The notes: generated by a model not told the origin, from the sequence alone. Positions 39,459 to 54,390 are shown, counted from the stretch's first letter. The stretch: 64,000 bases of DNA from an uncultured bacterium (GCA_963713955.1 OY970216.1:8075-72074), one strand, 5' to 3'. Numbers and translations: made by a program.

Positions 39459-39475
39459 TGAGCGGGTAAGGGGAG
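39459..39475. other. attL-like 17-bp direct repeat (TGAGCGGGTAAGGGGAG), identical to the 3' end of tRNA-Gly at 54300-54316
   Basis: Exact 17-nt identity with 54300-54316; the flanks are partly similar (ATCAAAC versus TCGAACC). Confidence 0.55.
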
Positions 39476-39590
39476 ATCAAACGTCGCTCCAATGTTACGT
39501 CATCGGAGCTCCCACGAACCCAGCGGTTCGTGTGCTCCGCGACGGGAAAACTCCCGTTTTCCCGACCCCTTTCCCGTTCGACTCCCCGAG

Positions 39591-39919
39591 GTGAATATTG
39601 AGTATTTATACGGAGCAGTTAAGACCTATTTTACCCAAAATTTCTGATTTTGGATACCCCCGAGCCTAGTCAATCACCCCGTCAATCACGATTGACTACC
39701 CTCACCCCTCTTTCGTCCAGATTCCACCGGGCTTTCCTCGAAAACCTTGTCCCCGACAATACTCGCCTCCGCCCCTTACCGGTGCGTCGGCTCGTCTCCC
39801 GCAGAGGCCGCCCCCATGGGAAGGGTCGAAGGGAAGGAATGGGGGGCGGCCTCTGCTTCACGTCGCGCGTCAGAGATGCTCCCGAGGCCGGATTGGAAAA
39901 GGGAAGCAAAAAGGAGGAG
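39591..39919. repeat. left copy of the roughly 330-bp near-perfect inverted repeat (partner at 51477-51804)
   Basis: The reverse complement of 51477-51804 matches almost base for base (the identical 82-aa ORF artefact MDTPEPSQ... appears in both copies). It contains the nested motif TAGTCAATCACCCCGTCAATCACGATTGACTA. Confidence 0.8.
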
Positions 39920-39959
39920 CGGCTTATAAGGCAGTGCGTTTTTCGGTATCATTAAGGGA

Positions 39960-40793
39960 ATGCCCCGATACCGCAAGAGATTCGAGAGGAGCAAGGAGCC
40001 GCCCAAGAATTTTCGCATCCAGACGCGCGACTACGGCCTCCTCGCTGACATAGCTGGCTATGGGGTGCTCTCGACCGAGCAGATTTTCGCGCTTCACAAG
40101 GGAGGAGAAAGGAATCTTCGGCGGAGATTGGCCGCGCTCTATCACTTGGGATACATCGAGAGACCGAAAGCGCAAAAACTGCTTCCTCCCGGGAGCTTCA
40201 TCATCTATTCCCTCGGCAGAAAAGGAGCGGAGCTCCTTCACCGCGAGGAGTCCGTCGGGAAAAGACACCGCGAGGTTTCCTTCCCTCATCTTTCCCACGC
40301 TTTGATGATCTCGAGGTTCCGGTCCATCCTCTCCCTCGCCTTGAAGGGCGGAGACAAGAAGATCGAGAAATGGATGCAGGGCAGGGAGTTGTACGATACG
40401 CTCTCCAAGCGGGAGAAGACCGACCTCGTTCCGGATGCTTTCTTCACGGTCGAGAGCAAAGAATACAAGTGGCCCTTCTTCCTCGAAGCGGACATGGGTA
40501 CGATGACGCGGACGAAGATGCTCGAAAAATACCGGACGTACTGGCGGTGGTGGCGGGAGAGGCGGCACGAGCATACGCTCGGCATACAGAGATTCCGCGT
40601 CCTCACGATCGCTCCCTCGGAGACGAGAACGGAGAATCTCGTGAAAGCCGCGAAGGAGGCCGACGACCGGAGAACCGGCAGCGACATGTTTCTCTTTTTA
40701 TCGGAGACTGCATACTCCTTGAAGGAGCCGGAAGAAATACTGAAGTCCGTCTGGCTTTCCGCGAAGGGCGGAAGGCACGGAATACTCGAATAA
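39960..40793 (+). CDS. replication-relaxation family protein (Replic_Relax-like, N-terminal HTH)
   Basis: RDYGLLADIAGYGVLSTEQIFALH matches the N-terminal motif of plasmid replication-relaxation proteins; 277 aa. Confidence 0.5.
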   Translation: MPRYRKRFERSKEPPKNFRIQTRDYGLLADIAGYGVLSTEQIFALHKGGERNLRRRLAALYHLGYIERPKAQKLLPPGSFIIYSLGRKGAELLHREESVGKRHREVSFPHLSHALMISRFRSILSLALKGGDKKIEKWMQGRELYDTLSKREKTDLVPDAFFTVESKEYKWPFFLEADMGTMTRTKMLEKYRTYWRWWRERRHEHTLGIQRFRVLTIAPSETRTENLVKAAKEADDRRTGSDMFLFLSETAYSLKEPEEILKSVWLSAKGGRHGILE

Positions 40794-40817
40794 CCCGCTC
40801 CATCGGACGGGTGGCTT

Positions 40818-41010
40818 CGCAACGCATACTCGTCAAAAGACCTGCGGCTTTTGGCTCGAGACTGCGTTCGCCGCCCTTCCGCTCTCGCTCGTCTGCCTTC
40901 GTTCAATGCACTTTCTCTTAATCGCGCTTGGATTCCTCGCTTCCGTGAGCCGCAATCTCCGCAACGCATACTCGCTGAAAACCTCTGGTTTCCAGTTCGA
41001 GACTGCGTTC
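40818..41010. repeat. two copies of a roughly 52-bp imperfect palindromic unit (iteron/operator-like), 142 bp apart, in a 465-bp non-coding stretch
   Basis: CGCAACGCATACTCG-N23-CGAGACTGCGTTC at 40818-40869 and again at 40960-41010 (about 80 percent identical to each other; each unit is an inverted repeat). Confidence 0.5.
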
Positions 41011-41258
41011 AATTGCGTCTCCCGTCGCTTAAAGGAAAAACGCGGGAGGCTTTAGGCTCAACGCTAAGCCCCGCGCATTTTTCCTTTCGCGGGGAGCGCG
41101 ACGGAGCGCGCCCCCCGTGCGATTCTGCCCTTGCCCCACCACGCCCGTGCGCGGGCAAGAACGCTCCCCGAAACTAGCAAAGGTTGACATTCTTTGATGG
41201 GATTTTGTAACATCCTCCCGACATCGTCCTTTCGGGCGGTGTACGGTGAGGGGGACTC

Positions 41259-41516
41259 TCACGAGTCCCCCTTGGTCTTTTCCGAAGTTACATCATTATC
41301 TGAAACCATTATCAACCTTATAACCCAATCTGAAAGCCAGACGGCTCCGGCTTGCTTCCCAGACTCTAGAAGAAACTGGTTCTGGGACGCGACAAGCGTT
41401 TCTTGAGTAGCGTTGGCGGATGACGGAGGCGCCGCATCGGTGGGAGACGACGCAAGTGCGATCTGTATGATCCAGAGAAGCAGAAAACCGATTACAACTC
41501 TCAAAAATTTCCCCAT
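41259..41516 (-). CDS. small secreted or membrane protein (pilin-like?), hypothetical
   Basis: 85 aa; signal/TM MGKFLRVVIGFLLLWIIQIALA plus a second mildly hydrophobic stretch. Confidence 0.3.
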   Translation of the reverse strand: MGKFLRVVIGFLLLWIIQIALASSPTDAAPPSSANATQETLVASQNQFLLESGKQAGAVWLSDWVIRLIMVSDNDVTSEKTKGDS

Positions 41517-41836
41517 GACTTTGAAGAAAAATTGGGTTGCTCGACCTTTATATTGGTTTATTAAAGAACTCCCCAGAGATTAAAAATCCCCCTGTCGCTC
41601 TTCGGTGGTACTTCAACCTGCGACAGGGGGTGTTTTGGTGCTAATTTTTTCGCTCTGCGCCAGAAATTTCTATCGAATAAACACCCTTAAGTTATGGTAA
41701 TGATAACAAACCGGTGGTGAAAGTCAACTTCGCTCTCCTAAAAACTTTGAATGTAGTAAAATAACTCCATATCCCTCGTGCCTCTTTCTCGGCACGACAC
41801 AAGGTCGAGAGTTCTATAAAAACAGCATAAAAATAC

Positions 41837-42541
41837 ATGTGGACGTTCATCTTAATCGTCATCGTAGCCGTCGTCGCGTGGAATGTGTACAAGAAAAAGC
41901 AAGAAGAACAGCAGGAAAGCGGAGCCTACGAGACCGCCGACGTCCCTCCGGAGCGGAAACACTTGAAACGGATGTCTCTCTCGGAGAAGTGGCGCACGGT
42001 GAGTAGCTGGACGACCCTCGTTCCCGGAGCAGAGGGAAAGGGAGATGCGATCTTCAAAGCCGCGAAGGAAAGTATCGGGAAAGCCGCGGCGCCGAACCTC
42101 GTAGTCGAGGAGCGGCGGGTTAGCGTAAACGACCTCGCGAAGAGGTACGGCGAGCGGCGGCTGCTCGTGGTCGAGAACCGGAAAATCCTCGGCTACTACG
42201 CCTTCGTCTCCGTCATGGATTACGGCCATCAGCTTTCCGTCTCGTGGTATCTTATGTTTCAGGAAAACTGGTTCACGAAGTTCATGAAGACCGCGGTCAA
42301 GGGCGGCGTGATCGCCTTCCTCGCCAACTGGTTCGTCGTAATCATGGCGAGAATCTTCTACGCCGCGAGGCGGTGCACCATCCCCGAACTCATGAACATC
42401 TTCGACGCGGAGGAATTGACCGCCTACACGACGACCGTCCACCACGCCGTAACGGGGGCGGTCGAGGAGCTGATGGGCGGCATGAACATGGACTTCTCGA
42501 GGGTGGACACGAGGTCGCGGGGATTTTTAAATATCTCTTAG
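41837..42541 (+). CDS. membrane protein; its stop lies one base before the ATPase start, so it may be the membrane half of a split coupling protein
   Basis: N-terminal TM (MWTFILIVIVAVVAW) and an internal TM (VIAFLANWFVVIMARIF). It ends at 42541 and the ATPase starts at 42543. Confidence 0.4.
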   Translation: MWTFILIVIVAVVAWNVYKKKQEEQQESGAYETADVPPERKHLKRMSLSEKWRTVSSWTTLVPGAEGKGDAIFKAAKESIGKAAAPNLVVEERRVSVNDLAKRYGERRLLVVENRKILGYYAFVSVMDYGHQLSVSWYLMFQENWFTKFMKTAVKGGVIAFLANWFVVIMARIFYAARRCTIPELMNIFDAEELTAYTTTVHHAVTGAVEELMGGMNMDFSRVDTRSRGFLNIS

Positions 42542-42542
42542 C

Positions 42543-43925
42543 ATGGCGGAACCGCGCATCTTCCGCCGCGAACCCAAGAGCGACGAACTCGCGCTGGGTT
42601 ACGCGTGGGGCGAGGACCAAAAAGGCGACCTCTGGCAATTGAAGGGCGTCGCGCAGGAAGACCGCGCCACCCATTTTTACGTGATCGGCGCATCCGGCAC
42701 TGGCAAGACGAAGTTCTTGGAATACATGATCGGGCAGGACATAGCGAACGGGGCGGGATTCGGTGTGATTGATCCCCATGGGGACTTGATCGAAGCCGTG
42801 AAAGAGCGGCTCGCGCTTTCCGGAGACGATCTCGAAAGCCGCGTCGTCCTTATCGACCCCACAGACAAGAAGAAGGTCGTCTCCTTCAATCCCCTCGAAC
42901 GGCTGGACGGTGTCTCCCCGGCGGAGCAGTCCGCCGAGCTCACGCTCGCGTTTAAAAAGATTTGGGCGGACGCGTGGGGCGCACGGATGGAGGACATTCT
43001 CCGCAATTCTTTCATCGCCTTGATTGAGAACGACCTCACCCTCGCGGAACTGCCCCTCCTGTTCGCCGATGCCGGACTCCGCGCGAAGCTCACGGCGAAC
43101 CTGAAAAACGAGACCGCGAGGGATTTCTTCCACAAGTTCGATTCGTGGAGCAAGACCTTGAAGAACGAGTGGACGGAATCCACCTTGAACAAGGTGAACG
43201 CCTTTTTGTCCGACGAGCGGGTGCGGGACATGTTTGTCTCGCCCAAAAGTTCCTTCAATCTGCGGGACGCGATTGATGCGGGAAAGATATTGTTGGTGAA
43301 ACTGGATAAGGGAAGATTGAAGGGCGCAAGCGACCTTCTGGGTTCGCTCATCTTGACGAAGCTCCAGATGGCCGCCTTCTCCCGGACGGACGTGAGAGAA
43401 TCCGAGCGCAAGCCCTTTTACTTGTACATCGACGAGTTCCAGAACTTCGCGACCGAGAGCTTCACGGACGTCCTCACGGAGGCGAGGAAATACAAGCTGT
43501 CACTTACGCTCGTGAACCAGAACTTGGGGCAGCTTCCCTCCGAACTCCGGGCTTCCATCCTCACGAACTGCGGGATACAGGCGTGTTTCCGCCTTTCCCG
43601 CTTCGATGCGGAGCTTCTCGCCAAAGAAGCGTTCGGCGGGGTGGCCGACGCGACCCCGCAATGGGAAAAAAAATTCCAGTTGCTCCAAGCCCTCCCTAGG
43701 CAGGTGTGCCTCGTGAAGAACAAGGCGGCGGGCGGGATTGTTCTTATCCGCGTGCCGGACATAGGAGACGGGATGGACGAGCGGGAGCTTGAGGCCGCCT
43801 TGCGGGAAGCAGGGATCGGAGAGAAATACCTCCGCAAACGGGACGAGATTAACAAGGAGTATCACAGAAGGCACGAGGCCTTAACGAAAACCGACGAGCC
43901 GGACGGGTTCAAGGAGAAAAGATAG
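42543..43925 (+). CDS. P-loop ATPase, TraD/TrwB/VirD4-like or HerA/DUF87-like (candidate DNA translocase / coupling protein)
   Basis: Walker A VIGASGTGKT; DPHGD motif; Walker B YLYIDEFQNF. Paralog of 50122-51420. Confidence 0.55.
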   Translation: MAEPRIFRREPKSDELALGYAWGEDQKGDLWQLKGVAQEDRATHFYVIGASGTGKTKFLEYMIGQDIANGAGFGVIDPHGDLIEAVKERLALSGDDLESRVVLIDPTDKKKVVSFNPLERLDGVSPAEQSAELTLAFKKIWADAWGARMEDILRNSFIALIENDLTLAELPLLFADAGLRAKLTANLKNETARDFFHKFDSWSKTLKNEWTESTLNKVNAFLSDERVRDMFVSPKSSFNLRDAIDAGKILLVKLDKGRLKGASDLLGSLILTKLQMAAFSRTDVRESERKPFYLYIDEFQNFATESFTDVLTEARKYKLSLTLVNQNLGQLPSELRASILTNCGIQACFRLSRFDAELLAKEAFGGVADATPQWEKKFQLLQALPRQVCLVKNKAAGGIVLIRVPDIGDGMDERELEAALREAGIGEKYLRKRDEINKEYHRRHEALTKTDEPDGFKEKR

Positions 43926-43940
43926 TATTTTTCTACACTG

Positions 43941-43969
43941 TTTGACATTATTGCTATATTATGGTATCA
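43941..43969 (+). promoter_or_regulatory. sigma70-like promoter upstream of the DGR target gene
   Basis: TTGACA, a 17-nt spacer, then TATCAT. AAGGAGG lies 5 nt before the ATG at 44038. Confidence 0.4.
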
Positions 43970-44037
43970 TATCAACATTCCTGAAACTTAGGAACGCATC
44001 TAAAAAACTTCATATTCACTAACCAAGAAAGGAGGCA

Positions 44038-44919
44038 ATGACGATGAATACTACATCGATCATGCCAATGACAGAAGGTCAAGAAAAGCAACTGAGTCGC
44101 GTCGTAATGGAGGACGAACTCTTTACACCGAAACCCACAAACGACGAAGCTCAGTGTCTTCTAAAGCACGGCAATATACTGCAAACGGCAGTCCGAATTT
44201 CCCGCAAGGAGATATTCGTCAAGTATCTCTACGCAGATGAGGAAAAATCGTCCGACTACACCTATCCCAAGGAATACAAGCGAAAATCAATCCGAGAGCA
44301 AATCGATATTCTTCTGGAGTGCTTCCCCGGATTGAACGCAACATGGGCTTTAATGAAGGGAGAAGCTTGGTACGACAGCCTGAAGAACTTGCCGGATTGG
44401 ATTGAAGGCCCGCTCGTCTATGTATGGTGGGAAATGTTCGGCAACTACAACGCCGCAACGGAACAGGTGCTCTCCGCTCTGGGGAAGAAGTACCAAAACT
44501 TCGTGAACTACCGGAACGGCCAGCTTGGACCAGAATACCTGCAACAGTCGAAAAAGACGACCGGTCTCGAAGCAAAGATTAAGAAGGACCAGCCTGGCGA
44601 TCTCATCATCGTCCCGAGTCAAGCCGGATTGCGCTGGAGGGGAAAATCTGTCCGTCGCGGCAGAGTCCTCTATGATCAGAACGAATTCGGTTCGGGAAGC
44701 GTCGCCGAAGGATGCCGAGTGCTGACCCATAATCGGTTCGTCCAATGGGAGCAACTGCACGTTGATTGCGGAGGAGACGAATACGCTCCTGAGGCCGATC
44801 GGGTTTTCTCGCACGCTCCGCACCTCTACTTCCTCGATAGCGAGATCGGGTTCGTCACGTACTGGATTGACTATGCCCATGGGCACTTCGGTTCGGCTTC
44901 CTCCCTTCTCCCGCAGTAA
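44038..44919 (+). CDS. DGR target (variable) protein; the C-terminal approximately 43 aa are encoded by the variable repeat
   Basis: The 3' end of the ORF (44787-44917) is the VR homologous to the TR. The gene has a strong RBS and promoter and is followed by a hairpin terminator. No signal peptide is evident. Confidence 0.7.
   Translation: MTMNTTSIMPMTEGQEKQLSRVVMEDELFTPKPTNDEAQCLLKHGNILQTAVRISRKEIFVKYLYADEEKSSDYTYPKEYKRKSIREQIDILLECFPGLNATWALMKGEAWYDSLKNLPDWIEGPLVYVWWEMFGNYNAATEQVLSALGKKYQNFVNYRNGQLGPEYLQQSKKTTGLEAKIKKDQPGDLIIVPSQAGLRWRGKSVRRGRVLYDQNEFGSGSVAEGCRVLTHNRFVQWEQLHVDCGGDEYAPEADRVFSHAPHLYFLDSEIGFVTYWIDYAHGHFGSASSLLPQ
44787..44917 (+). repeat. DGR variable repeat (VR)
   Basis: 131-bp alignment with TR 45299-45430: 17 mismatches, all at positions where the TR has A. 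The final approximately 30 nt are identical and GC-rich (IMH-like), ending at the target stop codon. Confidence 0.85.
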
Positions 44920-44992
44920 TCGAACATTGCACCTCGGACACTTGAACCTTTTGATGTCTTGTCCTTCGTTCCTTTCGTCCGCGTTATTTTTG

Positions 44993-45034
44993 AGAGGTTA
45001 TCCACACCATTGTGGGTAACCTCTTTATTTTTTA
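44993..45034 (+). terminator. hairpin plus T-run downstream of the VR/target gene
   Basis: AGAGGTTATCCACA-CCAT-TGTGGGTAACCTCT (14-bp stem with 1 mismatch) then TTTATTTTTTA. The stem contains a perfect TTATCCACA. Confidence 0.55.
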
Positions 45035-45298
45035 TAATCATGAATGAGACTAGGTTCATGAATGGCCGTCCACGGATTGCCGTCACCGAACTCCCTCTTC
45101 AATGAAGAGAAAAACAACCGGAATCTTAGCGACCACGGTTTCTAAGAGCGCGTTGTATTGAGGAGATTACTGCTTGTCCCCGTCTAGCGCAGGTTCCCGT
45201 TCGGGATGCTGCCGAATAAAATTCAGGATTGAGAGGATATAAGCTCCCCTTGAGCGGTAAACCTCGATTTCCAGTGATACGGACGGATGGGGGCAATG

Positions 45299-45430
45299 AT
45301 CCTGAGGCCGATCAAGTTTTCTCGCACGCTCCGAACCTCAACTTCAACGATAGCAAGATCAAGTTCAACACGAACTGGATTGACAATGCCAATGAGAACT
45401 TCGGTTCGGCTTCCTCCCTTCTCCCGAAGT
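45299..45430 (+). repeat. DGR template repeat (TR)
   Basis: Adenine-rich AAC/AAT/AAG-containing copy of the VR; the ORF-track entries 45229-45483(+) and 45223-45474(-) merely overlap it and are not believed to be genes. Confidence 0.85.
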
Positions 45431-45446
45431 CGCTCCTCAAGGAGGC

Positions 45447-45477
45447 AGAATGCCCGCGATTTATACGCGGGCATTCT
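45447..45477. terminator. strong hairpin between the TR and the avd stop (bidirectional terminator or TR-RNA 3' structure)
   Basis: AGAATGCCCGCG-ATTTATA-CGCGGGCATTCT, a 12-bp perfect stem. Confidence 0.5.
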
Positions 45478-45479
45478 CC

Positions 45480-45830
45480 TTAATTTTCTTTAGCCGATCT
45501 TATCCATCCGCCTAACATCCGGCCGATTTCATCCACGGAAGATTCGAGCGCCACATACTTTTTATTGTCTATGGTTTTCACTTCCTTCATGAGACGAAGA
45601 AAAACGCGCAGGAGATTAAGCTTGACGCTCGTCTTGTCTAAAACCGGCACTTTCTCCGATTTATAGAGTTTGCTGGCCGTAAGTATCCCCTCAAGAATTT
45701 CGAGTGTTAGTTCTTCCGATCTCTGCCAGATGGCGTACCGGTCTTGCTTGGGAACAATTGTGCGATAACCATAAAATGTTTTGTATAAGTCATAAGTTTT
45801 CTTGAATATGGGTATGTCAAAATCATCCAT
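45480..45830 (-). CDS. avd: Avd-like accessory variability determinant (four-helix-bundle, 23S rRNA-IVS protein family)
   Basis: 116 aa; C-terminal EIGRMLGGWIRSAKEN closely resembles the Bordetella phage bAvd C-terminus EVGRILGSWIARVNRK; it lies between the TR and the RT. Confidence 0.7.
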   Translation of the reverse strand: MDDFDIPIFKKTYDLYKTFYGYRTIVPKQDRYAIWQRSEELTLEILEGILTASKLYKSEKVPVLDKTSVKLNLLRVFLRLMKEVKTIDNKKYVALESSVDEIGRMLGGWIRSAKEN

Positions 45831-45844
45831 AAGTTTTACGCCAC

Positions 45845-46870
45845 ATGAAAACCTGCAAAAACATTTTTGAAAAGATAATCTCGCCAGAAAATCTTTTTTT
45901 GGCTTGGGACGCGTTCAAAGGCGACAAGCGGAATAAACCTGACGTTCTCCGGTTTGAATGGAATCTGGAACAGAACATTTTCCGGTTGCACGGAGATTTG
46001 AAAGATAGAACCTACCAGCATGGCCCCTATGCGAGCTTTTACATCAACGATCCGAAGCAGCGCCACATTCATAAGGCGACGGTTCGAGACAGGATTCTGC
46101 ATCACGCGGTTTTCTCGGTTATAAATCCAGTCTTCGAGCCGACCTTCATTCCGACTTCTTTTTCTTGTCGCATCGGATACGGCACTCATAAGGGTGTCGA
46201 GACTCTGGAAGAGATGATAAGAAGGGTAAGTAGGAATAATACGGCTCCCTGTTTTGTCTTGAAATGCGATGTTCAGAAATTTTTTGCGAGCGTAAGCCAC
46301 GAAATTCTGCTCTCCATTCTGGAAAAGAGAATTAAAGACGATGATGCAATGTGGCTTATGGGAAGCATCGTTAAAAGCTATGAGAGCGTGTCCAGGCGAG
46401 GCATCCCCATAGGGAATTTGACCTCCCAGCTCTTTGCCAACGTCTACATGAACGAACTTGATCAGTTTATGAAGCACGTGTTGAAGGTAAAATATTACAT
46501 TCGCTACACCGACGACTTCGCCGTAGTCGCTGGAGATAAAAAATATTTAGAAGAACTCCTGCCGCTTATATCCAAATTTCTTGAAAATAAACTCGCTCTC
46601 AAATTACATCCTAATAAAACCATATTTTTATCAATATGTCAAGGCGTAGATTTCCTCGGATACGTGATTTTCCCAAAACATAGACTTATCCGGTTACAGA
46701 CAAAGCATCGGATGTTTAAGAAATTGGAAAAACTGATGGAAGAATACAAAGCTGGAAATATCACCAAATTAAACTTCGAGCAGTCTCTCCAGTCTTATCT
46801 GGGTGTCTTATCTCATGCGGATACCCACACGATACGGGAAGAACTGTTGAACAAGTTCTGGATTTCTTAA
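45845..46870 (+). CDS. DGR-type reverse transcriptase
   Basis: RT motifs including IPIGNLTSQLFANVY (the DGR-specific I/LGxxxSQ in place of the group II QGxxxSP) and YIRYTDDFAV (YxDD); 341 aa with no maturase or endonuclease domains. Confidence 0.9.
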   Translation: MKTCKNIFEKIISPENLFLAWDAFKGDKRNKPDVLRFEWNLEQNIFRLHGDLKDRTYQHGPYASFYINDPKQRHIHKATVRDRILHHAVFSVINPVFEPTFIPTSFSCRIGYGTHKGVETLEEMIRRVSRNNTAPCFVLKCDVQKFFASVSHEILLSILEKRIKDDDAMWLMGSIVKSYESVSRRGIPIGNLTSQLFANVYMNELDQFMKHVLKVKYYIRYTDDFAVVAGDKKYLEELLPLISKFLENKLALKLHPNKTIFLSICQGVDFLGYVIFPKHRLIRLQTKHRMFKKLEKLMEEYKAGNITKLNFEQSLQSYLGVLSHADTHTIREELLNKFWIS

Positions 46871-47393: not shown

Positions 47394-47546
47394 TCAGCTT
47401 AACGGCTGGTGCAGCGCAAGACGGATCGCACTAACGATAGCCGCAGCCACCAGCCAGCCGACAGCGAGCGCGGAAACGACCTTGAGAACTATTTTAACAA
47501 CCAACCAAAATTTCTTCATGGGTCCGTTTTTGGTTTTTCCGTCCAT
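47394..47546 (-). CDS. 50-aa single-TM micro-protein (not in the ORF track)
   Basis: MDGKTKNGPMKKFWLVVKIVLKVVSALAVGWLVAAAIVSAIRLALHQPLS. Confidence 0.25.
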   Translation of the reverse strand: MDGKTKNGPMKKFWLVVKIVLKVVSALAVGWLVAAAIVSAIRLALHQPLS

Positions 47547-47550
47547 AAGT

Positions 47551-47766
47551 TTATTTCGCATTGTTCAACGACGCAGAACTTAGAATGAAGTTCTGGATGA
47601 TGGGGCATCGCTCCGCTTCGTCCGCCGGAACGGTGAACGTGGCGTCCGGCTGGTATTCCTTGAAAGCGCAGTCCACGAGCGAAGGCGACGGCCCCGTTTT
47701 CCAGAGGAGGGTTACGGCGACCAGCAATACTACGATTATTCCCACTAACCAGATGAGAGATTTCAT
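47551..47766 (-). CDS. 71-aa small membrane/secreted protein
   Basis: MKSLIWLVGIIVVLLVAVTLLW TM or signal; overlaps the stop of the upstream gene. Confidence 0.3.
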   Translation of the reverse strand: MKSLIWLVGIIVVLLVAVTLLWKTGPSPSLVDCAFKEYQPDATFTVPADEAERCPIIQNFILSSASLNNAK

Positions 47767-48734
47767 TTCGTGAGGTTAATTGGAGCCATGATGATGGTAT
47801 CGCTCGCCCCGCCTTCATCGCCCATGGGGAGCAAGAAAGTTCCGCCACCCCTGTAGAGTTTGCCGTAGTCTCCCTGCTTGTACGAAATGATGGTGTAGCT
47901 CGGCTCGTTCATTATCATCGCGCCGTTTTCGTTCGTGCAGGTTGTGTTAATGGACAATATGCTGTCCGGCGTGAAGTAGGCGGTATTCGTGCTCGTGCTC
48001 TTGAGCGCGACCCAGCCGTTGTTCGCCACGCTGAAAGAGCATCCACTCTTATTCGCGCTCATCGTCACCTTGATCCTTGCGGGTCCGAAGACGTTCAGTC
48101 CTCCCCAGTTGGAGTTTATGATCCCATCGGACTCCAGCACTTCGGCCGAGACGCTCACGTCCTTCGCCGTTGACGATGCCGCAAAGGCGCCGGTCTTCGG
48201 AAGATCGGCACCCCCCGCCGCGTTCACCGCCGCGTCTTCCTCGCTCTTCACATACAGGGCGAGCTTGAACGTTGCGTCCGTGAACTCCTTGACGGCGGGG
48301 CAGCTGTTTAACTTTATGTTTTCGTCAGGCGTGAGGCCGAAGGACGAATCGTTCAAGTATTTGTTCATGTCCGAACCCAAGGCGTCCTTGAGACACTGCT
48401 GCACCGACGGAGGAGCGCCCGTCGAGAGAGTGAGCGCCGTGGTGCTCGTGTTCACGCAGCCGCTACTGCTCATAAGCTTTTGGGTCGAACTGGTTACAAT
48501 CCCTTCGCTGTATGCGGCATTGAAGGCATCGCCCATCTTGGACTGGAGGCAGGCCACGAACTCACTGCTCGTCGAGTAGAGGTCGATAAACGCTTGGAAC
48601 GGGTTCGGCTTCACGACTTGGGGGAGCTTGGCGGCGGCGAATTGCTGGACGGGGCGGTACAGCAAGAAGGCGGTTGCTCCCGCCGCAACAATTACGACGA
48701 TGACTACGCCTAAAATTATTTTGTTTTTGTTCAT
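47763..48734 (-). CDS. N-terminally anchored extracellular Ser/Thr-rich protein, hypothetical
   Basis: TM IILGVVIVVIVAAGATAFLLY, then a 300-aa Cys-containing beta-rich domain. Confidence 0.4.
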   Translation of the reverse strand: MNKNKIILGVVIVVIVAAGATAFLLYRPVQQFAAAKLPQVVKPNPFQAFIDLYSTSSEFVACLQSKMGDAFNAAYSEGIVTSSTQKLMSSSGCVNTSTTALTLSTGAPPSVQQCLKDALGSDMNKYLNDSSFGLTPDENIKLNSCPAVKEFTDATFKLALYVKSEEDAAVNAAGGADLPKTGAFAASSTAKDVSVSAEVLESDGIINSNWGGLNVFGPARIKVTMSANKSGCSFSVANNGWVALKSTSTNTAYFTPDSILSINTTCTNENGAMIMNEPSYTIISYKQGDYGKLYRGGGTFLLPMGDEGGASDTIIMAPINLTK

Positions 48735-48845
48735 AAATTTTTAAAGAAAAAAGCTAACCGGCGGGTTCGACGTTTAGCTTTGTGCAGAAACACAAAGCCC
48801 CCAGCCAGTGATCCCTTGCGAGACCCATACCAGTTTCCCGATATG

Positions 48846-48895
48846 ACGATTGCGCGTGCTCTGACTAGGAGCTTTCTATGCGCAATCGTTTTTTA
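48846..48895 (+). terminator. plus-strand hairpin plus T6 in a 380-bp ORF-free gap between two minus-strand genes (candidate sRNA 3' end)
   Basis: ACGATTGCGC-N24-GCGCAATCGT followed by TTTTTT. Confidence 0.3.
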
Positions 48896-49112
48896 AACCC
48901 TGCCGCAGGCTTTCCTACGGGTTAGGTCTCATATGAAATTGTATGGAGTCAATAGTAACACAACGGCAGGAAAAGGCAAGATTAAAAACGCCCGATTTTA
49001 TATGAAATATCAGGCGGTTGTTACCATAGTCGGCTTGCTCCTTGTATATAAGTTTGCTATACTTTAGTTAACGTAGCAACGAAATGAACAAGCTTTACGA
49101 TATAGTTCAGTA

Positions 49113-49880
49113 CTAGTTGGCTGGTATCGCCAGCTCTACGGCGAACGTGTCTTTTGCTATTCGCTCCGTACCCTTAAATGGCTCTACCAAGTCGTCAAAG
49201 TAATGTAAATTTTCCGGCCGAAGAGTCTCGGATAGATAAGCTTCAGCTCGCGTTTTATCGGCGATGTAATCTTTGGCTAGCTCCCTGTTTTCAGGTTTTT
49301 CTAAAAATCCTTTAAACTGCTTCGGGGTTAACGTACCTCTGTAATAACCCCATTTCCTCGTTAGACAATGTACGAGGTTGTTTTCATTTATAAGCAACTC
49401 GCGGAGTATTCTTTTCTTTAAATCCTTCTCGCCTATCTTGTTTATATCTATCTCATCGATATATGCGATAGCATCCCTGAAAGAAAGCAAGGCATTATTT
49501 ATTTGAGCCAATCTTTTGGAGCCGTGTTTAATACCCTTGTCATGGGCGGCTCCATCGCGGACATTCTCGTATTCATAAATCTCCAAGTGAGATATTCCTA
49601 AAGTGCGGGCCATCTGCGATTTGGATATGCTTCTCTCTTTCTCCCAGTTCTTTGCGTTCTCCTCTAAAATCTGTTTTCTTAATGCCTCGATTTCCTCTCC
49701 GGTCATCTGGAGCAAAAGGTAATTCGCCGCTCCCACGAGTGCTATGATCAGAGCGAGAAACGCCATGAGATTTAAAGCGTCTCCCGGCGAGAAAACTTTA
49801 GGCCATATAAAAGCAGCGAATCCCATTAAGACAACGGCAGCGAGAAATAACCCGATAATCCACCAAAATGTAACTTTCAT
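49113..49880 (-). CDS. membrane protein with a cytoplasmic helical domain, hypothetical
   Basis: Two N-terminal TM helices; ...SQMARTLGISHLEIYEYE is an HTH-like segment. Confidence 0.4.
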   Translation of the reverse strand: MKVTFWWIIGLFLAAVVLMGFAAFIWPKVFSPGDALNLMAFLALIIALVGAANYLLLQMTGEEIEALRKQILEENAKNWEKERSISKSQMARTLGISHLEIYEYENVRDGAAHDKGIKHGSKRLAQINNALLSFRDAIAYIDEIDINKIGEKDLKKRILRELLINENNLVHCLTRKWGYYRGTLTPKQFKGFLEKPENRELAKDYIADKTRAEAYLSETLRPENLHYFDDLVEPFKGTERIAKDTFAVELAIPAN

Positions 49881-50121
49881 ATATAAGCTTATTTTTTAAC
49901 AAACCCCTTAGGCTCTTATTATACCACCCCCGTTTGACACCAGCCCACCAAAAATGGTATCCACTATCAGCCCATTACCTCCCCCGCCCGAGCCAATCGG
50001 TGCGGAGGAAGGCGGAGCGCAGGAGAGCTTGCCTTCCGCCTGCCGCAAGATAATCGCTCCCGGTTGTCTTGCGGAGGAATGAAGCTCGTATCATAAAAGA
50101 TATACAATAAAGGGACGCAAC

Positions 50122-51420
50122 GTGCGCCCCTTTTTGTATTTTCTGATGGACGACATCCTCCCCATCGGCAGGACGACCTCCCATTCGAGCGGGCTTGTCT
50201 TCGGAATCCGGACGAGAGACCGGCGACACCACATGTATGTCGTGGGGCAGACCGGCACGGGAAAATCGACTTTGCTCAAGAATATGGCGATAACGGACAT
50301 CCGGGGCGGGCGCGGCTGCGCCGTGATAGACCCGCACGGGGAACTCGTCGAGGACATCCTTAACTTCATTCCTTCTAAGAGGGCGAACGAAGTCGTGTAT
50401 TTCAATCCCTCGGATGTCGAGAATCCCATCGGCTTGAACATTCTCGAAGCGAGGGACGAGGAGGAAAAGCAACTGGTCGCCTCGTCCTTGATCTCGGTAT
50501 TCAAACACCTATGGAAGGGGTTCTGGGGGCCTCGGCTGGAACACGTCTTCCATAACGCCATATTAGCTCTTATGGATACGCCGGGGAGCACCCTCCTCGG
50601 CGTTTATCGTATGCTCGCGGACGACGATTACCGCCGCCTCGTCGTTTCCCACGCGAAAGACCCCATAGTTAGGTTGTTCTGGGAAAAGGACTTCGACGAA
50701 TATCCGCCTCAATTCCGCAAAGAGGTCGCCTCTCCTATCCAGAACAAGATCGGGCAATTGCTCACGAACACGCCCTTGCGGAATATCGTGGGACAGACGA
50801 CGAGCACGATTGATCTCAAATACATCATGGATAACCGGAGAGTCCTTCTCGTGAACCTCGCGAAAGGCAGAATCGGAGAAGACAAGGCGAACCTTCTCGG
50901 GTCCGTCCTCGTTACCAAGCTCTATTTGGCCGCTTTGGAGAGGCAGGCGATCCCGGAGGAGGAACGCAAGGACTTCTACCTCTACGTTGACGAGTTCCAG
51001 AACTTCTCGACGGACGTGTTTCCTTCGATACTCTCGGAGGCGAGGAAATACCGGCTGAACCTCATCTTGGCTCACCAGTATCTCCACCAGTTGACCGACG
51101 AGGTGCGGCACGCCGTCTTCGGAAACGTGGGCACTTTGGTCGCTTTCCGCGTGGGGAGCATAGACGCGGAGGAACTCGCAAGAGAGTTCCTGCCCTCGTT
51201 CGGGAGGAGCGACCTCGAATGCGAGGACAACTACCACACTTATATTAAATTGATGATCGACGGCAAGCGTTCGCTTCCCTTCTCGGCGGAAACGCTCCCG
51301 CCCCTCTGCCTTATGGGCGACGAGGCGAAGAAAGACATTCTGATTCAGGTTTCACGGGAGCGTTTCGCTTCAAAAAGATGCGAGATCGAATCCAAAATCG
51401 AAAAATGGATTGGCAGGTGA
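50122..51420 (+). CDS. P-loop ATPase, paralog of 42543-43925 (TraD/VirD4- or HerA-like)
   Basis: VVGQTGTGKST, DPHGE, YLYVDEFQNF; roughly 45 percent identical to the first ATPase. Probably a GTG start. Confidence 0.55.
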   Translation: MRPFLYFLMDDILPIGRTTSHSSGLVFGIRTRDRRHHMYVVGQTGTGKSTLLKNMAITDIRGGRGCAVIDPHGELVEDILNFIPSKRANEVVYFNPSDVENPIGLNILEARDEEEKQLVASSLISVFKHLWKGFWGPRLEHVFHNAILALMDTPGSTLLGVYRMLADDDYRRLVVSHAKDPIVRLFWEKDFDEYPPQFRKEVASPIQNKIGQLLTNTPLRNIVGQTTSTIDLKYIMDNRRVLLVNLAKGRIGEDKANLLGSVLVTKLYLAALERQAIPEEERKDFYLYVDEFQNFSTDVFPSILSEARKYRLNLILAHQYLHQLTDEVRHAVFGNVGTLVAFRVGSIDAEELAREFLPSFGRSDLECEDNYHTYIKLMIDGKRSLPFSAETLPPLCLMGDEAKKDILIQVSRERFASKRCEIESKIEKWIGR

Positions 51421-51476
51421 TCCATTTTTCGCTCGTTTGTTCCTCGGCCATGCGGGCCTTGAGCTGTTTTTTTATT

Positions 51477-51804
51477 TCCTCCCTTTTTCCTTCCCTTTTC
51501 CTTCCGGCCTCGGGAGCATCTCTGACGCGCGACGTGAAGCAGAGGCCGCCCCCCATTCCTTCCCTTCGACCCTTCCCATGGGGGCGGCCTCTGCGGGAGA
51601 CGAGCCGACGCACCGGTAAGGGGCGGAGGCGAGTATTGTCGGGGACAAGGTTTTCGAGGAAAGCCCGGTGGAATCTGGACGAAAGAGGGGTGAGGGTAGT
51701 CAATCGTGATTGACGGGGTGATTGACTAGGCTCGGGGGTATCCAAAATCAGAAATTTTGGGTAAAATAGGTCTTAACTGCTCCGTATAAATACTCAAGTT
51801 TCAC
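51477..51804. repeat. right copy of the roughly 330-bp inverted repeat
   Basis: Reverse complement of 39591-39919. Confidence 0.8.
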
Positions 51805-51986
51805 ACAAAGGTTATTTTCCCCAAAATTTTCACGGGCTTCGCGGAGCGAAGCATAAGGTTTGATGGGGCTAAATACGATGCGACGGTTTTTTAGAGAGAG
51901 GTTCGAGAGTTAAGGGTATAACACTTGCCCCACACCACCCGTGCGCGTGTTATGAATCTTGCTGATTTGATAATCAGCTACTCCCT

Positions 51987-52526
51987 TTAGATCACTAACT
52001 TCCCGTTATTTGCGACATATGCGGATAAGGTTATCAGATTCGTAATTGCGATGACGAAATTCGTTTTGTGGAGAGTTTGGCCGACACCCAAATTATCCAA
52101 ATCTTTTGCGTGTTGCTTCTCGTGGAAATAATAGCCATAGAGCCATTTCTTTATCACGTCCTCGCCAGTTTCAGATTTACTATTAATAATCATTTTTATG
52201 GTGGGTTCTTTCATTAGTGATGCGTAGATATCCTTACATTTTTGAAGATTATTAATGATCTTCTGATCTGTAGTATTGGCGATAAGCAAATCGCAGATAT
52301 CCGGCAGATACACACCATCTTTCTTAAGAGTAAATTTCCTCAAGTCCAAAAGCATTGAACGCAAATCTTCCTCATCGAAGCCCGTGGTTTCTTGCTTGAG
52401 AGGTTGTCCTGCTTCAAAGTTTAATTGATAGCCGACTTTTTTGGTTTCCCTCGTAAACCTTGCGTTCTTCACTTTTTCAACGATAGAAATAAACTGCTCG
52501 ACCTTCTCCTTATTTGACGGGTTCAT
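51987..52526 (-). CDS. hypothetical protein (element cargo)
   Basis: 179 aa; AT-rich gene with no recognisable motif. Confidence 0.35.
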   Translation of the reverse strand: MNPSNKEKVEQFISIVEKVKNARFTRETKKVGYQLNFEAGQPLKQETTGFDEEDLRSMLLDLRKFTLKKDGVYLPDICDLLIANTTDQKIINNLQKCKDIYASLMKEPTIKMIINSKSETGEDVIKKWLYGYYFHEKQHAKDLDNLGVGQTLHKTNFVIAITNLITLSAYVANNGKLVI

Positions 52527-52532
52527 GTCTAA

Positions 52533-52760
52533 TTATAAAAGGTCTTTAGGTCTTATACCTAACGCTTTTGCAATCTTTTCTATGTTCTTGAGTGTTGGGT
52601 TTCTTTCGCCGCGCTCTATCTGACTGATATAGGTTGAATGAACGCCCAAACTTCTCGCAATATCTCCTTGCGATAATTGCTTCTTGAGGCGGATGGCCTT
52701 GATCTGCTTTCTAACTCTTGTGGATATGTCCGTGTTCGCCATTGTTTTCATTATTATCAT
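52533..52760 (-). CDS. XRE-family (Cro/cI-type) HTH transcriptional regulator
   Basis: LSQGDIARSLGVHSTYISQIERGERNPTLKNIEKIAKALG. Confidence 0.75.
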   Translation of the reverse strand: MIIMKTMANTDISTRVRKQIKAIRLKKQLSQGDIARSLGVHSTYISQIERGERNPTLKNIEKIAKALGIRPKDLL

Positions 52761-52812
52761 AACAGTTGCCGTGCTATTGCTCTATGGAACGCAAATGCTC
52801 TATAATAGAACC

Positions 52813-54390
52813 ATGTCTACTTACTTCCTCTACGCCCGCAAATCGACCGACGTTGAAGACAAGCAAGTCCGGTCGATTGACGATCAGCTTTCAGTGCTTC
52901 GTACCCTTGCAAAAGACGAGGGACTACACATCGTTTCCGAGTTTGTGGAGAAGCAGTCCGCCAAGATGCCCGGTCGCCCCGTATTCAATAACATGCTTTC
53001 CCGCATTGAGAAAGGAGAGGCGCAAGGCATCGTCTGTTGGAAACTAGATCGGCTTGCCAGAAATCCGGCGGACGGCGGCACGATACAATGGATGCTCCAG
53101 CGGGGCATCATCCAACATATCCAAACCTACGAAAAGAGTTATAAGACAGCCGACAACACGCTATTGATGAGCGTGGAGTTCGGGATGGCGAACCAGTTCA
53201 TTCTTGACTTGGCTGCGAACACCAAGCGCGGCCTCTATGAGAAAGTGAAGCGTGGCGAATATCCTTCGCTTGCCCCTATCGGATACTTGAACGACCGGGT
53301 GAGGAAAACCGTCGTTGTGGACAGGGCGACGGCGAAGATCGTCCGTGCCGCGTTTGAACTCTATGCCGAAGGCAACTCACGATTGGAAGACATATCCGCA
53401 TTTTTTGCCAAACATCACATCTATTCCGAGAACGGCAAACCTTTGAAACGCGACCGGATAACCTACATCCTCTCGAATCCCTTTTATATCGGTTTCTTCC
53501 GCTACGCAAAAGAGCTTCACGAGGGAAAGCACAAGCCCCTCATTTCCAAGACTCTTTTCGACAAGGTGCAAGCCGTCTTAAAAGGGAGGGGCAGACCTCA
53601 TCACAAATTGCAGAACGAGCCGAAACCTCTTTGCGGACTGCTCTACTGCGCCGAGTGCGGATGCGCGATCACCGGAGAGGAAAAGGTGAAGCACCAGAAG
53701 AACGGCAACGTCCACACCTACCGCTATTATCGTTGCACGAAAAAGAAAGGTGCCTGTTCCCAGCCAAACGTTCGAGAGGAAAACCTTACTTTGCAACTAT
53801 CCGAGGCTATCAGACCATTCGCCCTTCCGTACGAATGGGCGGCGGAGCTTTCAAAGAAAGCTGATATGGATGAGCAAGTTACCCTCACATCTTCCGCCGC
53901 CCAGAGCCAAACGATACGGGACGAGATAACGGCCGTTTCCCAAAAGATCAAGCGACTTCACGCGATGTATCTAGACCAAGACATTGAACGGGAAAGCTTC
54001 CTTGAGGAGAAGGCGAATCTGCTTTCCCAGAAGAAGTCGCTCACGGAGAAAATGGCTGATGTTTCAAAGGGGGTGATCGCTTGGCTCGAACCGATGCGGG
54101 AATGGATAAAAGACGCGTCAAATCTGAACGATTTCGACGAAACCGCCTCTCTTTCCCTCACTAAGTCGTATACTCTTAAAATTTTCGGCTCGAACCTCTC
54201 TCTAAAAAACCGTCGCATCGTATTTAGCCCCATCAAACCTTATGCTTCGCTCCGCGAAGCCCGTGAAAATTTTGGGGAAAATAACCTTTGTGTGAAACTT
54301 GAGCGGGTAAGGGGAGTCGAACCCCTCTCATCAGCTTGGAAAGCTGAGGTAATGCCGATATACGATACCCGCCAACATCTTTTATCTTAA
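52813..54390 (+). CDS. large serine recombinase (resolvase catalytic domain, recombinase domain, zinc ribbon)
   Basis: YARKSTDVEDKQVRSIDDQ (catalytic Ser), APIGYLNDR, CAECGC...C zinc ribbon. Start set at MSTYFLY. The last approximately 30 codons are antisense to tRNA-Gly. Confidence 0.8.
   Translation: MSTYFLYARKSTDVEDKQVRSIDDQLSVLRTLAKDEGLHIVSEFVEKQSAKMPGRPVFNNMLSRIEKGEAQGIVCWKLDRLARNPADGGTIQWMLQRGIIQHIQTYEKSYKTADNTLLMSVEFGMANQFILDLAANTKRGLYEKVKRGEYPSLAPIGYLNDRVRKTVVVDRATAKIVRAAFELYAEGNSRLEDISAFFAKHHIYSENGKPLKRDRITYILSNPFYIGFFRYAKELHEGKHKPLISKTLFDKVQAVLKGRGRPHHKLQNEPKPLCGLLYCAECGCAITGEEKVKHQKNGNVHTYRYYRCTKKKGACSQPNVREENLTLQLSEAIRPFALPYEWAAELSKKADMDEQVTLTSSAAQSQTIRDEITAVSQKIKRLHAMYLDQDIERESFLEEKANLLSQKKSLTEKMADVSKGVIAWLEPMREWIKDASNLNDFDETASLSLTKSYTLKIFGSNLSLKNRRIVFSPIKPYASLREARENFGENNLCVKLERVRGVEPLSSAWKAEVMPIYDTRQHLLS
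54302..54372 (-). tRNA. tRNA-Gly (anticodon TCC)
   Basis: GCGGGTA-TC-GTA-TATCGGCAT-TAC-C-TCAGC-TTTCCAA-GCTGA-TGAG-AGGGGTTCGACTCCCCT-TACCCGC-T. The acceptor, anticodon and T stems are perfect; the D-stem has 3 bp. Confidence 0.7.

Follow-up and report, generated by a model that had tools for sequence, protein, structure and literature searches.

Genes at the locus

The window, by which we mean the whole stretch of 64,000 nucleotides (64 kb) analysed here, from an uncultured bacterium, carries an insertion of 14,701 bp (39603-54303) immediately 3' of a tRNA-Gly(UCC) gene. It encodes a large serine recombinase (LSR) and a variety of other functions, listed here with the two flanking genes that frame it.

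38741-39310, ECF sigma factor, just outside the left end (Pfam)
39960-40793, plus strand, Replic_Relax protein (PF13814, E = 2.7e-24, 86.7 bits against a cut-off of 25.3; PHROG 'replication initiation by nicking')
41837-42541, plus strand, 234-aa membrane protein
42543-43925, plus strand, coupling-protein-like ATPase 1, TraD/TrwB/VirD4/HerA superfamily (Pfam)
44038-44919, plus strand, DGR target gene, with the VR at 44787-44917
45300-45430, plus strand, DGR template repeat (TR)
45480-45830, minus strand (opposite to the reverse transcriptase), bAvd accessory protein (PF22296, E = 2.6e-17; same gene call in contig L082)
45845-46870, plus strand, DGR reverse transcriptase (Pfam RVT_1; NCBIfam RT families)
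46896-49880, minus strand, cargo block: 121-aa gene, 323-aa gene, LOOT RNA (48810-48928) and 255-aa gene
50122-51420, plus strand, coupling-protein-like ATPase 2 (Pfam TrwB_AAD_bind, E = 3.4e-15)
51987-52526, minus strand, 179-aa protein, no family match in any library searched
52533-52760, minus strand, XRE-type HTH regulator, divergent from the LSR gene (Pfam HTH_3, E = 7e-18)
52813-54390, plus strand, LSR (Pfam Resolvase, Recombinase, Zn_ribbon_recom; ORF 52684-54390, conserved start 52813)
54302-54372, minus strand, intact tRNA-Gly(UCC) (Rfam, 55 bits; ARAGORN gives 54301-54372, anticodon tcc)

A preliminary description of this DNA had reported a serine recombinase with a divergent XRE gene, a replication-relaxation protein, TraD/HerA-like ATPases and a DGR, with an ECF sigma operon just beyond the left end. 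All of these hold, and Pfam supports the LSR, the XRE protein, the Replic_Relax protein, both ATPases, bAvd, the reverse transcriptase and the sigma factor. The same description noted a heterogeneous composition. Per kb, GC content spans 0.42-0.60 inside the element and is equally uneven elsewhere in the window (0.36-0.58); composition therefore does not discriminate the element.

The three LSR domains match at E = 1.7e-19 (PF00239), 2.4e-15 (PF07508) and 3.6e-10 (PF13408), and the motif YARKS(T), with the catalytic serine, lies at the conserved N-terminus. The protein matches a PHROG integrase (E = 3e-75) and its relatives in the PDB are the integrases of SPbeta and A118; it is <31% identical to any LSR in phage or plasmid collections. 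It is the only recombinase found; the element's main ORFs that were scanned gave no match to tyrosine recombinases (Phage_integrase). At least 24 relatives have an XRE homologue in this position. No candidate directionality factor was recognised, the 179-aa protein and other small proteins being without family match.

Replic_Relax (PF13814) is a MOBC-type relaxase family with a PD-(D/E)XK fold, treated as MOBC by CONJscan (PMC5357655, PMC3424549), and the element's relaxase is predicted to be of this type. Among matches of the ATPases, Pfam TrwB_AAD_bind and T4SS-DNA_transf exceed their cut-offs and the NCBIfam TraD and VirD4 equivalog models fall far below their curated ones; the pair recurs in three relatives (L008, L010, L026). 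Profiles from Pfam, PHROG and NCBIfam detected no mating-pore genes (VirB4 and others) among the element's ORFs. The element is thus at most an IME, with self-transfer unsupported, and it is probably mobilisable. Each of the 17 TR/VR mismatches is at a TR adenine. The window and the otherwise identical contig L082 show 11 differences, every one of them within 44801-44885, in the VR; judged from these sequences, the DGR is active.

Boundaries and empty sites

The sites that define the insertion are the following.

39459-39475, plus strand, left 17-bp copy, a tRNA-Gly 3' fragment (~24 nt, one indel), outside the element
39476-39597, plus strand, native tRNA-Gly trailer, B arm of attB, its end collinear with the L166 trailer
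39598-39602, plus strand, attL core TTGAG, the only sequence common to the left, middle and right junctions
39603-39918, plus strand, Y arm: P' half-site, then iterated motifs and a hairpin (inverted repeat; P'-type motif spacing)
51477-51907, minus strand, internal inverted attP: X arm 51907-51798, core TTGAG 51797-51793, Y arm 51792-51477
54189-54298, plus strand, X arm (P half-site region), the 3' end of the LSR ORF (inverted repeat)
54299-54303, plus strand, attR core TTGAG, shared junction sequence

In three related genomes (L165, L166 and L168) the sigma operon is followed by tRNA-Gly and then by the p220, holin, SecG and SBP genes, with 300-560 nt in between and no island; this is therefore a true insertion. 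The earlier proposal of an integrated element at the tRNA-Gly 3' end is thereby upheld, and the search for empty sites in related genomes that it recommended was successful. Its companion search, for a circular excised form, gave no match: an exact-pattern scan of metagenome contigs recovered neither an excised circle, nor an attP junction, nor an empty attB from the same population.

We place the ends at 39603 and 54303 because the junctions have only TTGAG in common (39598-39602 and 54299-54303). The true left end, at 39598/39603, is ~140 nt further inside than the 39459 first suggested. Joining 39602 to 54304 produces a site collinear with L166, whose tRNA-Gly is nearly identical to that of the window, and the intergenic region of L165 is 93% identical to 39556-39585 over 30 nt. 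Within the native trailer, GTTCGACTCCCC at 39576-39587 is an inverted copy of the T-loop and 3' T-stem of the tRNA-Gly itself. The dyad centre of attB would fall between 39598 and 39599, and the central dinucleotide of the core is probably TT (39598-39599). Because the SBP protein of the genomes with the nearest empty sites is just 61-66% identical, the island may have been assembled stepwise.

Both arms have internal structure. The Y arm, upstream of the relaxase gene, includes a hairpin with a 15-bp stem (39801-39856) and may contain oriT. The X arm carries a GC hairpin (54244-54260) that is conserved across 51 elements, with compensatory changes in all 6 pairs. The LSR ORF crosses the X arm and core and then runs for 29 codons antisense into the tRNA; comparison of tail sequences indicates that these replace its last 19 codons upon integration.

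A second attP and its conservation among relatives

Two inverted repeats were missed by the preliminary description: 39591-39918 with 51477-51804 (328 nt, 97% identity) and 51793-51907 with 54189-54303 (115 nt, 100%). Together, 115 nt of the right end and ~310 nt of the left end make up the internal site, which is exactly X + TTGAG + Y. Here X joins Y directly via the core, with neither the 17-mer nor the native trailer stretch. The arrangement is identical in the independent contig L082.

We surveyed 161 loci, the window and 160 relatives. The layout of attL, inverted attP and attR recurs among them, with cores of 3-5 nt in L029, L031, L046, L052 and L058, and a pattern search finds it in 10 loci. 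The X inverted repeat is present in 101 of the 161, and its end falls 3-8 nt within the called tRNA at 56 of 66 loci. Across their first 50 nt, repeat copies share 97-99.5% identity within an element, versus ~33% between elements; by this comparison the two attP copies evolve in concert, a persistent 10-nt bulge included. Carriage of a further complete attP, in inverted orientation between cargo segment and recombinase module, is conserved in the family.

The LSR gene runs antisense into a minus-strand tRNA in 98 loci (97 relatives and the window), covering 27 isoacceptors, and near-identical LSRs are found at different tRNAs. The GAAC motif lies further from the core in Y than in the tRNA arm, by 4 nt in 39 of 40 loci and by 5 nt in the other. 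The published shift of the ZD motif between attP- and attB-type half-sites is 5 bp (Rutherford et al. 2013, PMC3783163), and the 4-nt shift between tRNA-side and element-side arms, though it falls short of that value, is as expected if these represent attB and attP. Near-identical LSR 3' ends (98.95%) are joined to an attP-type arm in L093 and to tRNA-Arg in L094. Cargo outside the recombinase module varies widely, and the family is large and apparently undescribed.

Alternative readings of the repeats

Could the inverted repeats constitute an inversion system, Hin/Gin-like or resembling the 2-micron and pSM19035 flip-flop, in which the recombinase or homologous recombination flips the module or the cargo for regulation or to amplify the copy number of a free circle? 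Each segment does lie between long, near-identical inverted repeats that contain a recombinase site and evolve in concert, and L074, L118 and L157 have attP-type sites flanking the LSR gene on both sides. In three contigs (L005, L071 and L098) the LSR gene points away from the tRNA; all three end inside the repeat, which makes their orientation unresolvable by a short-read assembler. Against inversion, the cargo strand relative to the LSR gene is constant in all five elements with the TraD pair, and in 97 relatives it is the LSR-proximal copy that adjoins the tRNA. Inversion at the attP copies would leave every junction sequence unchanged, and no serine integrase is known to recombine two attP sites with each other (PMC3783163). 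We regard inversion as unlikely.

It is less probable still that the autonomous unit is a transposon-like recombinase module of 2.5 kb (51793-54303), the 11.9-kb cargo segment being an older or separate island. Its 115-nt terminal inverted repeats are perfect, and in many relatives the repeats bracket little beyond the LSR gene (the span between X repeats has a minimum of 1.5 kb and a median of 2.75 kb), with widely differing cargo outside. The cores at its two ends are, however, inverted (CTCAA and TTGAG), so a serine recombinase could not excise it as a circle. Its left flank, Y', recurs at the element's far left end, where it exactly abuts the native trailer via the same core, and this is also the case at nine other loci. 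Both segments are missing from the empty sites, and the order of ATPase 2 (TraD2) directly left of the middle site is kept in L008, L010, L026 and L030.

The preliminary description had taken a 17-bp repeat as recombination site and left boundary, which would make the element run from 39459/39476 to 54299/54316, with the left copy a displaced tRNA 3' end. The repeat, TGAGCGGGTAAGGGGAG, is real: the window contains exactly two copies, at 39459-39475 and 54300-54316 as originally given, against a chance expectation of 0.01, and none of 100 shuffles yielded two copies. [quoted passage not shown] The left copy extends to ~24 nt of tRNA-like sequence and has a 19-nt analogue in L052. Yet it sits 124 nt outside attL, and the intervening 39476-39597 is native, as the L166 trailer and the L165 match indicate. 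The tRNA fragment is missing from the empty sites of L166 and L165, the internal attP lacks the 17-mer, and the junctions of relatives have only 3-5 nt in common. That the 17-mer served as the att core is very improbable. In L052, the comparable tRNA fragment lies 572 nt outside that element's own attL.

Finally, an assembly artefact, suggested by contig breaks ≤60 nt from the LSR end in 41 of the 160 relatives and by four contigs with k-mer-sized inverted ends, can be dismissed almost outright, given the same layout in L082 and in long-read assemblies, including the complete 829-kb chromosome of L029, and given a repeat found in 101 loci from many studies at identities of 84 to 100%.

Integration and a possible role for the second attP

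We conclude, with a probability of roughly 0.85, that this is an integrative element inserted by its own LSR 3' of tRNA-Gly(UCC) in a Patescibacteria chromosome. For the LSR, the DNA of the tRNA's acceptor and T arm would serve as the B' half-site, and the native trailer would provide the B half-site. Strand exchange would occur within TTGAG, probably at TT and three bases past the discriminator, and because the crossover falls past this base the tRNA would be left untouched. The attP would be X-TTGAG-Y, in which X is the last 110 nt of the LSR ORF and Y bears a motif that mimics the tRNA T-loop and lies 4 nt further out, as in attP-type sites. Integration would then generate attL (trailer-TTGAG-Y) and attR (X-TTGAG-tRNA), swapping the last LSR codons. 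Excision would presumably involve a directionality factor, and transfer may proceed as single-stranded DNA.

The second, inverted attP might have a function in the transfer cycle and not be a mere leftover. We offer this as a speculation that we think unlikely to be right. When a single strand arrives through the MOBC relaxase or is taken up by competence, its two attP copies (~420 nt here) could pair into a duplex attP flanked by two loops, one formed by the recombinase module and the other by the cargo. The LSR could recognise this duplex, and perhaps integrate it next to a tRNA, before complementary-strand synthesis. Such folding would explain the strict inverted orientation, the concerted evolution including the 10-nt bulge, and the conserved hairpin, as well as why, where this could be resolved, it is almost always the LSR-proximal copy that adjoins the tRNA. 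If true, it would be the serine-recombinase counterpart of the CTX folded attP or the integron attC.

Comparison with known systems

Inverted recombination sites split the element in two in the yeast 2-micron plasmid with Flp, in pSM19035 with the beta recombinase and in the folded double attP of CTX, and these are analogies only. Unlike 2-micron and pSM19035, no flip-flop isomers were seen (orientation is constant in five of five elements), and the enzyme is an LSR of the unidirectional type. In archaea, SSV1 has its attP within the integrase ORF and a tRNA target, and integration changes the reading frame, as in the window element. The SSV1 enzyme is a tyrosine recombinase and integration splits its gene, whereas here only the last 19 codons are swapped for 29.

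The LSR shares its Resolvase, Recombinase and zinc-ribbon architecture with the integrases of phiC31, Bxb1, A118/LI and SPbeta (SprA), which likewise convert a short-core attP and attB into attL and attR. A motif spaced differently in attP- and attB-type half-sites is also seen in phage-type serine integrases (PMC3783163). Unlike those, the family described here targets tRNA 3' boundaries of 27 isoacceptors, and in the window element attP and the end of the integrase ORF overlap, with a second, inverted attP inside the element.

Islander-type tRNA islands are similar in their site on the 3' side of a tRNA gene, in having variable cargo and in the position of the integrase next to the tRNA. Their integration into tDNA is described as catalysed by tyrosine integrases (PMC4383910); the window element has an LSR. 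No tRNA segment is duplicated in it, unlike in these islands, because the crossover would fall after the discriminator. Classical tRNA islands are recognised by a displaced tRNA direct repeat as boundary and a tyrosine integrase; the window element lacks the former, and its main ORFs that were scanned gave no match to the latter. Streptococcal IMEs that combine a MOBC relaxase with a serine integrase resemble it in their PF13814 relaxase, site-specific recombinase and lack of mating-pore genes. Unlike them, the window element belongs to a Patescibacteria host and combines two coupling-protein-like ATPases and a DGR with a tRNA target and a doubled attP.

The insertion and its ends

An exact 17-bp repeat at 39459-39475 and 54300-54316 was taken in the preliminary description to bound an integrated element. 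The 17-mer, TGAGCGGGTAAGGGGAG, does occur exactly twice in the window (0.01 expected by chance), and the copy at 54300-54316 overlaps an intact minus-strand tRNA-Gly(UCC) at its 3' end (54301-54372 by ARAGORN, 54302-54372 by Rfam). All genes named as lying between were found (Replic_Relax, two TrwB/TraD/HerA-like ATPases, a DGR, an XRE regulator and the large serine recombinase, LSR, which was correctly identified), and the ECF sigma gene reported just beyond the left end is at 38741-39310. Within the element, GC content varies as described, but it is equally uneven in the remainder of the window.

The 220-aa protein encoded in the flank has almost no homologues, so we used the SBP protein encoded on the downstream side of the tRNA, with relatives labelled Patescibacteria, Paceibacterota or Minisyncoccia, to reach empty sites. 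Three loci from relatives (L165, L166 and L168; SBP 61-66% identical to that of the window) were informative. On one side they encode HU, two unknown genes and the ECF sigma gene, and on the other the 220-aa gene, holin, SecG, SBP, PGI and RNase J, with a gap of just 300-560 nt that includes tRNA-Gly(tcc). This uninterrupted locus is the empty site expected for an integrated element, and it establishes the island as a true insertion. Exact-protein look-ups with the flanking genes returned the same strain only (ERR10755942 and ERR12035932 are among the samples containing it); two such matches are short Logan contigs broken inside the native DNA 3' of the tRNA (the trailer) or inside the tRNA, and are uninformative on occupancy.

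The left boundary lies elsewhere than at the 17-bp repeat. L166 reads ...GGAGTTCGACTCCCAAGATAGATTT TGAG CGGGTAAGGGGAGTCGAACC..., and the window has ...CCGTTCGACTCCCCGAGGTGAATAT TGAG at 39573-39602 and CGGGTAAGGGGAGTCGAACC starting at 54304. Window positions 39556-39585 also match the L165 intergenic region (93% over 30 nt). The collinearity with L166 and the L165 match indicate that 39476-39597 is native trailer and not element. Judged from these alignments, the insertion spans 39603-54303 (14,701 bp); copies of the core occupy 39598-39602 and 54299-54303.

The left 17-bp copy is 124 nt outside attL, in a stretch that is variable among relatives, and is missing in L166. It is carried, as a tRNA-Gly 3' fragment, by a lineage-specific stretch of ~105 nt (~39430-39555) that L165 lacks; L166 has unrelated sequence in its place. 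A comparable 19-nt tRNA fragment occurs in L052 (4644-4662), 572 nt outside its attL. The 123-nt stretch beside the 17-bp copy was considered as a decayed remnant of an older family member's right end, given that its last 13 nt resemble the element's right end, but the idea was dropped, as the stretch matches no relative's right end significantly and is conserved at empty sites.

The attL, attP, attR and attB junctions had zero exact-pattern matches in the scanned metagenome contigs, so an excised circle was not seen there, and the element DNA has no match in plasmid or phage collections. Overall, the observation made in the preliminary description is confirmed, and its interpretation is partly supported, being wrong on the left boundary and on what the 17-bp repeat does.

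Three attachment sites in one element

A repeat search revealed two inverted repeats overlooked in the preliminary description: 39591-39918 with 51477-51804 (328 nt, 97%), and 51793-51907 with 54189-54303 (115 nt, 100%). On the minus strand, 51907-51477 reads as X (the last 115 nt before the tRNA, which is the element's right end and the 3' end of the LSR ORF), TTGAG, and then Y, the left-end sequence starting at 39603. Three sites are present:

Attachment sites in the window
Left site: trailer-TTGAG-Y, attL form
Middle site, inverted: X-TTGAG-Y, attP form
Right site: X-TTGAG-tRNA, attR form

The three forms have just the 5-nt core in common, which argues against the 17-bp repeat as the recombination site. 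The LSR ORF crosses X and the core and extends 29 codons further, antisense to the tRNA; in an attP it would stop 19 codons past the core, with a tail ending ...VKLEYLYGAVKTYFTQNF. The arrangement is the same in L082, an independent assembly of the same strain. It is also seen in all 10 loci whose left end falls in the fetched flank, and L029, a complete 829-kb chromosome, shows the full layout. Its recurrence in relatives and in L082 indicates that it is not an assembly artefact. Cores differ among relatives (TGCTC in L029 and L031, GCT in L046, GCTC in L052, GTG in L058).

Gene content

Genes of the element
39960-40793: Replic_Relax
42543-43925: TrwB/TraD/HerA-like ATPase 1
44038-44919: DGR target gene, with VR at 44787-44917
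45300-45430: DGR TR
45480-45830, minus strand: bAvd
45845-46870: DGR RT
50122-51420: TrwB/TraD/HerA-like ATPase 2
52533-52760, minus strand: XRE regulator
52684-54390: LSR ORF (conserved start 52813), with Resolvase, Recombinase and Zn_ribbon_recom domains

In CONJscan, the Replic_Relax family is the MOBC relaxase (PMC5357655); its fold is PD-(D/E)XK (PMC3424549). As the element has a MOBC relaxase and two coupling-protein-like ATPases, and no mating-pore genes were seen among its ORFs, it would be at most mobilisable. The backbone order of ATPase 1, ATPase 2, middle site, XRE and LSR is kept in L008, L010, L026 and L030; in the window, the DGR block, together with three unknown genes, separates the ATPases. 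The window ATPases (42543-43925 and 50122-51420) are a conserved paralogous pair, adjacent in L010 and separated by 0.8-1.7 kb in L026 and L008; in the window, 6.2 kb of cargo (the DGR and other genes) splits them. Cargo differs elsewhere: L029 carries GmrSD and a HEPN/DUF5343 pair, and L074 has restriction-modification, Schlafen-like and Abi-like genes.

Across window positions 44413-60482, L082 is 99.93% identical to the window; it differs at 11 places, 10 substitutions and a single 1-nt deletion, all of them in the VR, within 44801-44885. This confinement suggests ongoing diversification by the DGR within the population. With the deletion, the target protein is called as 326 aa rather than 293 aa. 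The bAvd gene (45480-45830) is between TR and RT, on the strand opposite to TR, VR and RT, which is probably an unusual DGR layout. A LOOT RNA (48810-48928, minus strand) is a strong Rfam match (83 bits vs a gathering score of 46) in the cargo block, directly upstream of a gene for a 323-aa secreted or membrane protein. An Rfam search of the Y arm gave no match. In the recombinase module, scans predicted promoters and terminators no more often than in shuffled sequence.

A recombinase family at the tRNA boundary

LSR relatives number 212 in species-representative genomes, almost all of them Patescibacteria MAGs, and >555 in metagenome contigs. Viral contigs have none, and the best identity in phage or plasmid collections is not >31%. 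The nearest solved structures are the SPbeta and A118 integrases. We surveyed 161 loci (160 relatives and the window). In 98 (97 relatives and the window), a minus-strand tRNA overlaps the LSR 3' end, and these represent 27 isoacceptors, mostly Asn, Gln, Gly and Thr; in 41 loci the contig breaks off no more than 60 nt from the LSR end. The X inverted repeat (median length 148 nt, with arms a median of 2.75 kb apart) is present in 101 loci, and in 64 of the 82 with ≥2.5 kb of upstream sequence. Its end is 3-8 nt inside the called tRNA in 56/66 loci.

In L075 (1-8480), two family members in opposite orientation occur either side of one tRNA cluster, one at tRNA-Arg(-) and the other at tRNA-Gly(+), and their LSR genes are 74% identical in DNA. 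Seven loci (L053, L066, L116, L125, L128, L155 and L159) have a tRNA-like 3' half after the core (e.g. CGCGGGTAGGATTCGAACCTACGACC...TTACAC) with no ARAGORN call. These halves diverge past the anticodon region and then have a common GTGGACTATATCATC motif; they may be interrupted or intron-containing tRNA genes.

The T-loop motif GAAC is 14-16 nt from the repeat end in the tRNA arm, and a GAAC mimic is 18-21 nt out in the Y arm. In serine integrases, attB has the same zinc-ribbon-domain motif as attP, 5 bp nearer the centre (Rutherford et al. 2013, PMC3783163); in this family the shift amounts to 4 nt in 39 loci and 5 nt in a single locus. By this independent criterion, the tRNA side is of attB type and Y of attP type. 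In the window trailer, GTTCGACTCCCC (39576-39587) is the reverse complement of the tRNA's GGGGAGTCGAAC. The two copies are 22 nt apart, and the dyad centre falls between 39598 and 39599, so TT is the likely crossover dinucleotide. The inverted copy corresponds to the genome's own T-loop and 3' T-stem, also in L166 (~8157-8167) and L165 (~8452-8463), and changes along with the tRNA: the window has GTTCGACTCCCC, and L165 has GTTCGATTCCGG. It may represent a trailer or terminator structure, co-opted by the recombinase for use as a second half-site.

Near-identical LSR 3' ends occur at different tRNAs (Gln vs Asn, Ala vs Tyr; 94-95% over ~440 nt), with differences concentrated in the last 10 nt before the core. 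This indicates either easy target switching or generic tRNA recognition. Pairs with 93-95% DNA identity include L026 vs L030/L153 and L028 vs L049 (both Gln/Asn), L024 vs L120 (Ala/Tyr) and L009 vs L051 (Ala/Thr). The LSR 3' ends of L093 and L094 are 98.95% identical; the first is joined to an attP-type arm, the second to tRNA-Arg. The clade inserts just beyond the discriminator of at least 27 tRNAs, and apparently reads the conserved T-arm to do so.

The second, inverted attP

Within an element, the two X copies share 97-99.5% identity across the 50 nt next to the core and are perfect over 30 nt in 91% of elements, whereas the same positions are ~33% identical between different elements. The copies therefore evolve in concert. 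A GC-rich hairpin 45-60 nt before the core has compensatory changes in 6/6 pairs across 51 elements, and the peptide encoded there is not conserved. In one subfamily, the distal X copy has a 10-nt insertion that would frameshift the LSR tail, within nearly identical flanks. This insertion, GGCT[TTGAATTTCT]TGAACC (~10 nt), is in the distal copy only, at codons of the conserved LSR FGSNL motif, and yields TTGAAT and TTGAAC hexamers (L015, L018, L019, L026, L027, L030, L034, L049 and L059).

So, why carry two attP copies? One speculation, which we prefer while giving it a low probability, is that they pair in a single-stranded transfer intermediate to form a duplex attP. In three contigs (L074, L118 and L157), the LSR is flanked on either side by an attP-type site and no tRNA is present, which suggests that the free form already carries two attP sites; none of the loci is a circular contig, and just four have inverted ends. 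The facts argue against a freely flipping switch, as the cargo-gene strand relative to the LSR is constant in 5/5 comparable elements and the LSR-proximal X copy is the tRNA-joined one in 97 relatives. The apparent exceptions to the latter (L005, L071 and L098) all end inside the repeat. A cointegrate origin of the two segments is excluded, since fusion of two circles yields direct, not inverted, sites.

Comparison with known systems

The findings provide a first concrete picture of the mobility of Patescibacteria islands that carry DGRs, restriction systems, and HEPN or Abi defence genes. To our knowledge, there are almost no genetic tools for Patescibacteria. The family is also a pool of serine integrases for which a near-universal sequence is the natural landing site. 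Literature searches on Patescibacteria/CPR serine-recombinase elements and inverted attP duplication returned nothing relevant, and we located no description of the family; the conserved second attP is likewise a design without earlier description for serine integrases in these searches, and is open to simple recombination assays. Integration at tRNA genes is usually regarded as a trait of tyrosine integrases, but here it is carried out by a large clade of serine integrases, with relatives nearly all in Patescibacteria. The element is a serine-integrase island, distinct in its tRNA-boundary target, in an attP that overlaps the integrase ORF, and in its conserved inverted second attP.
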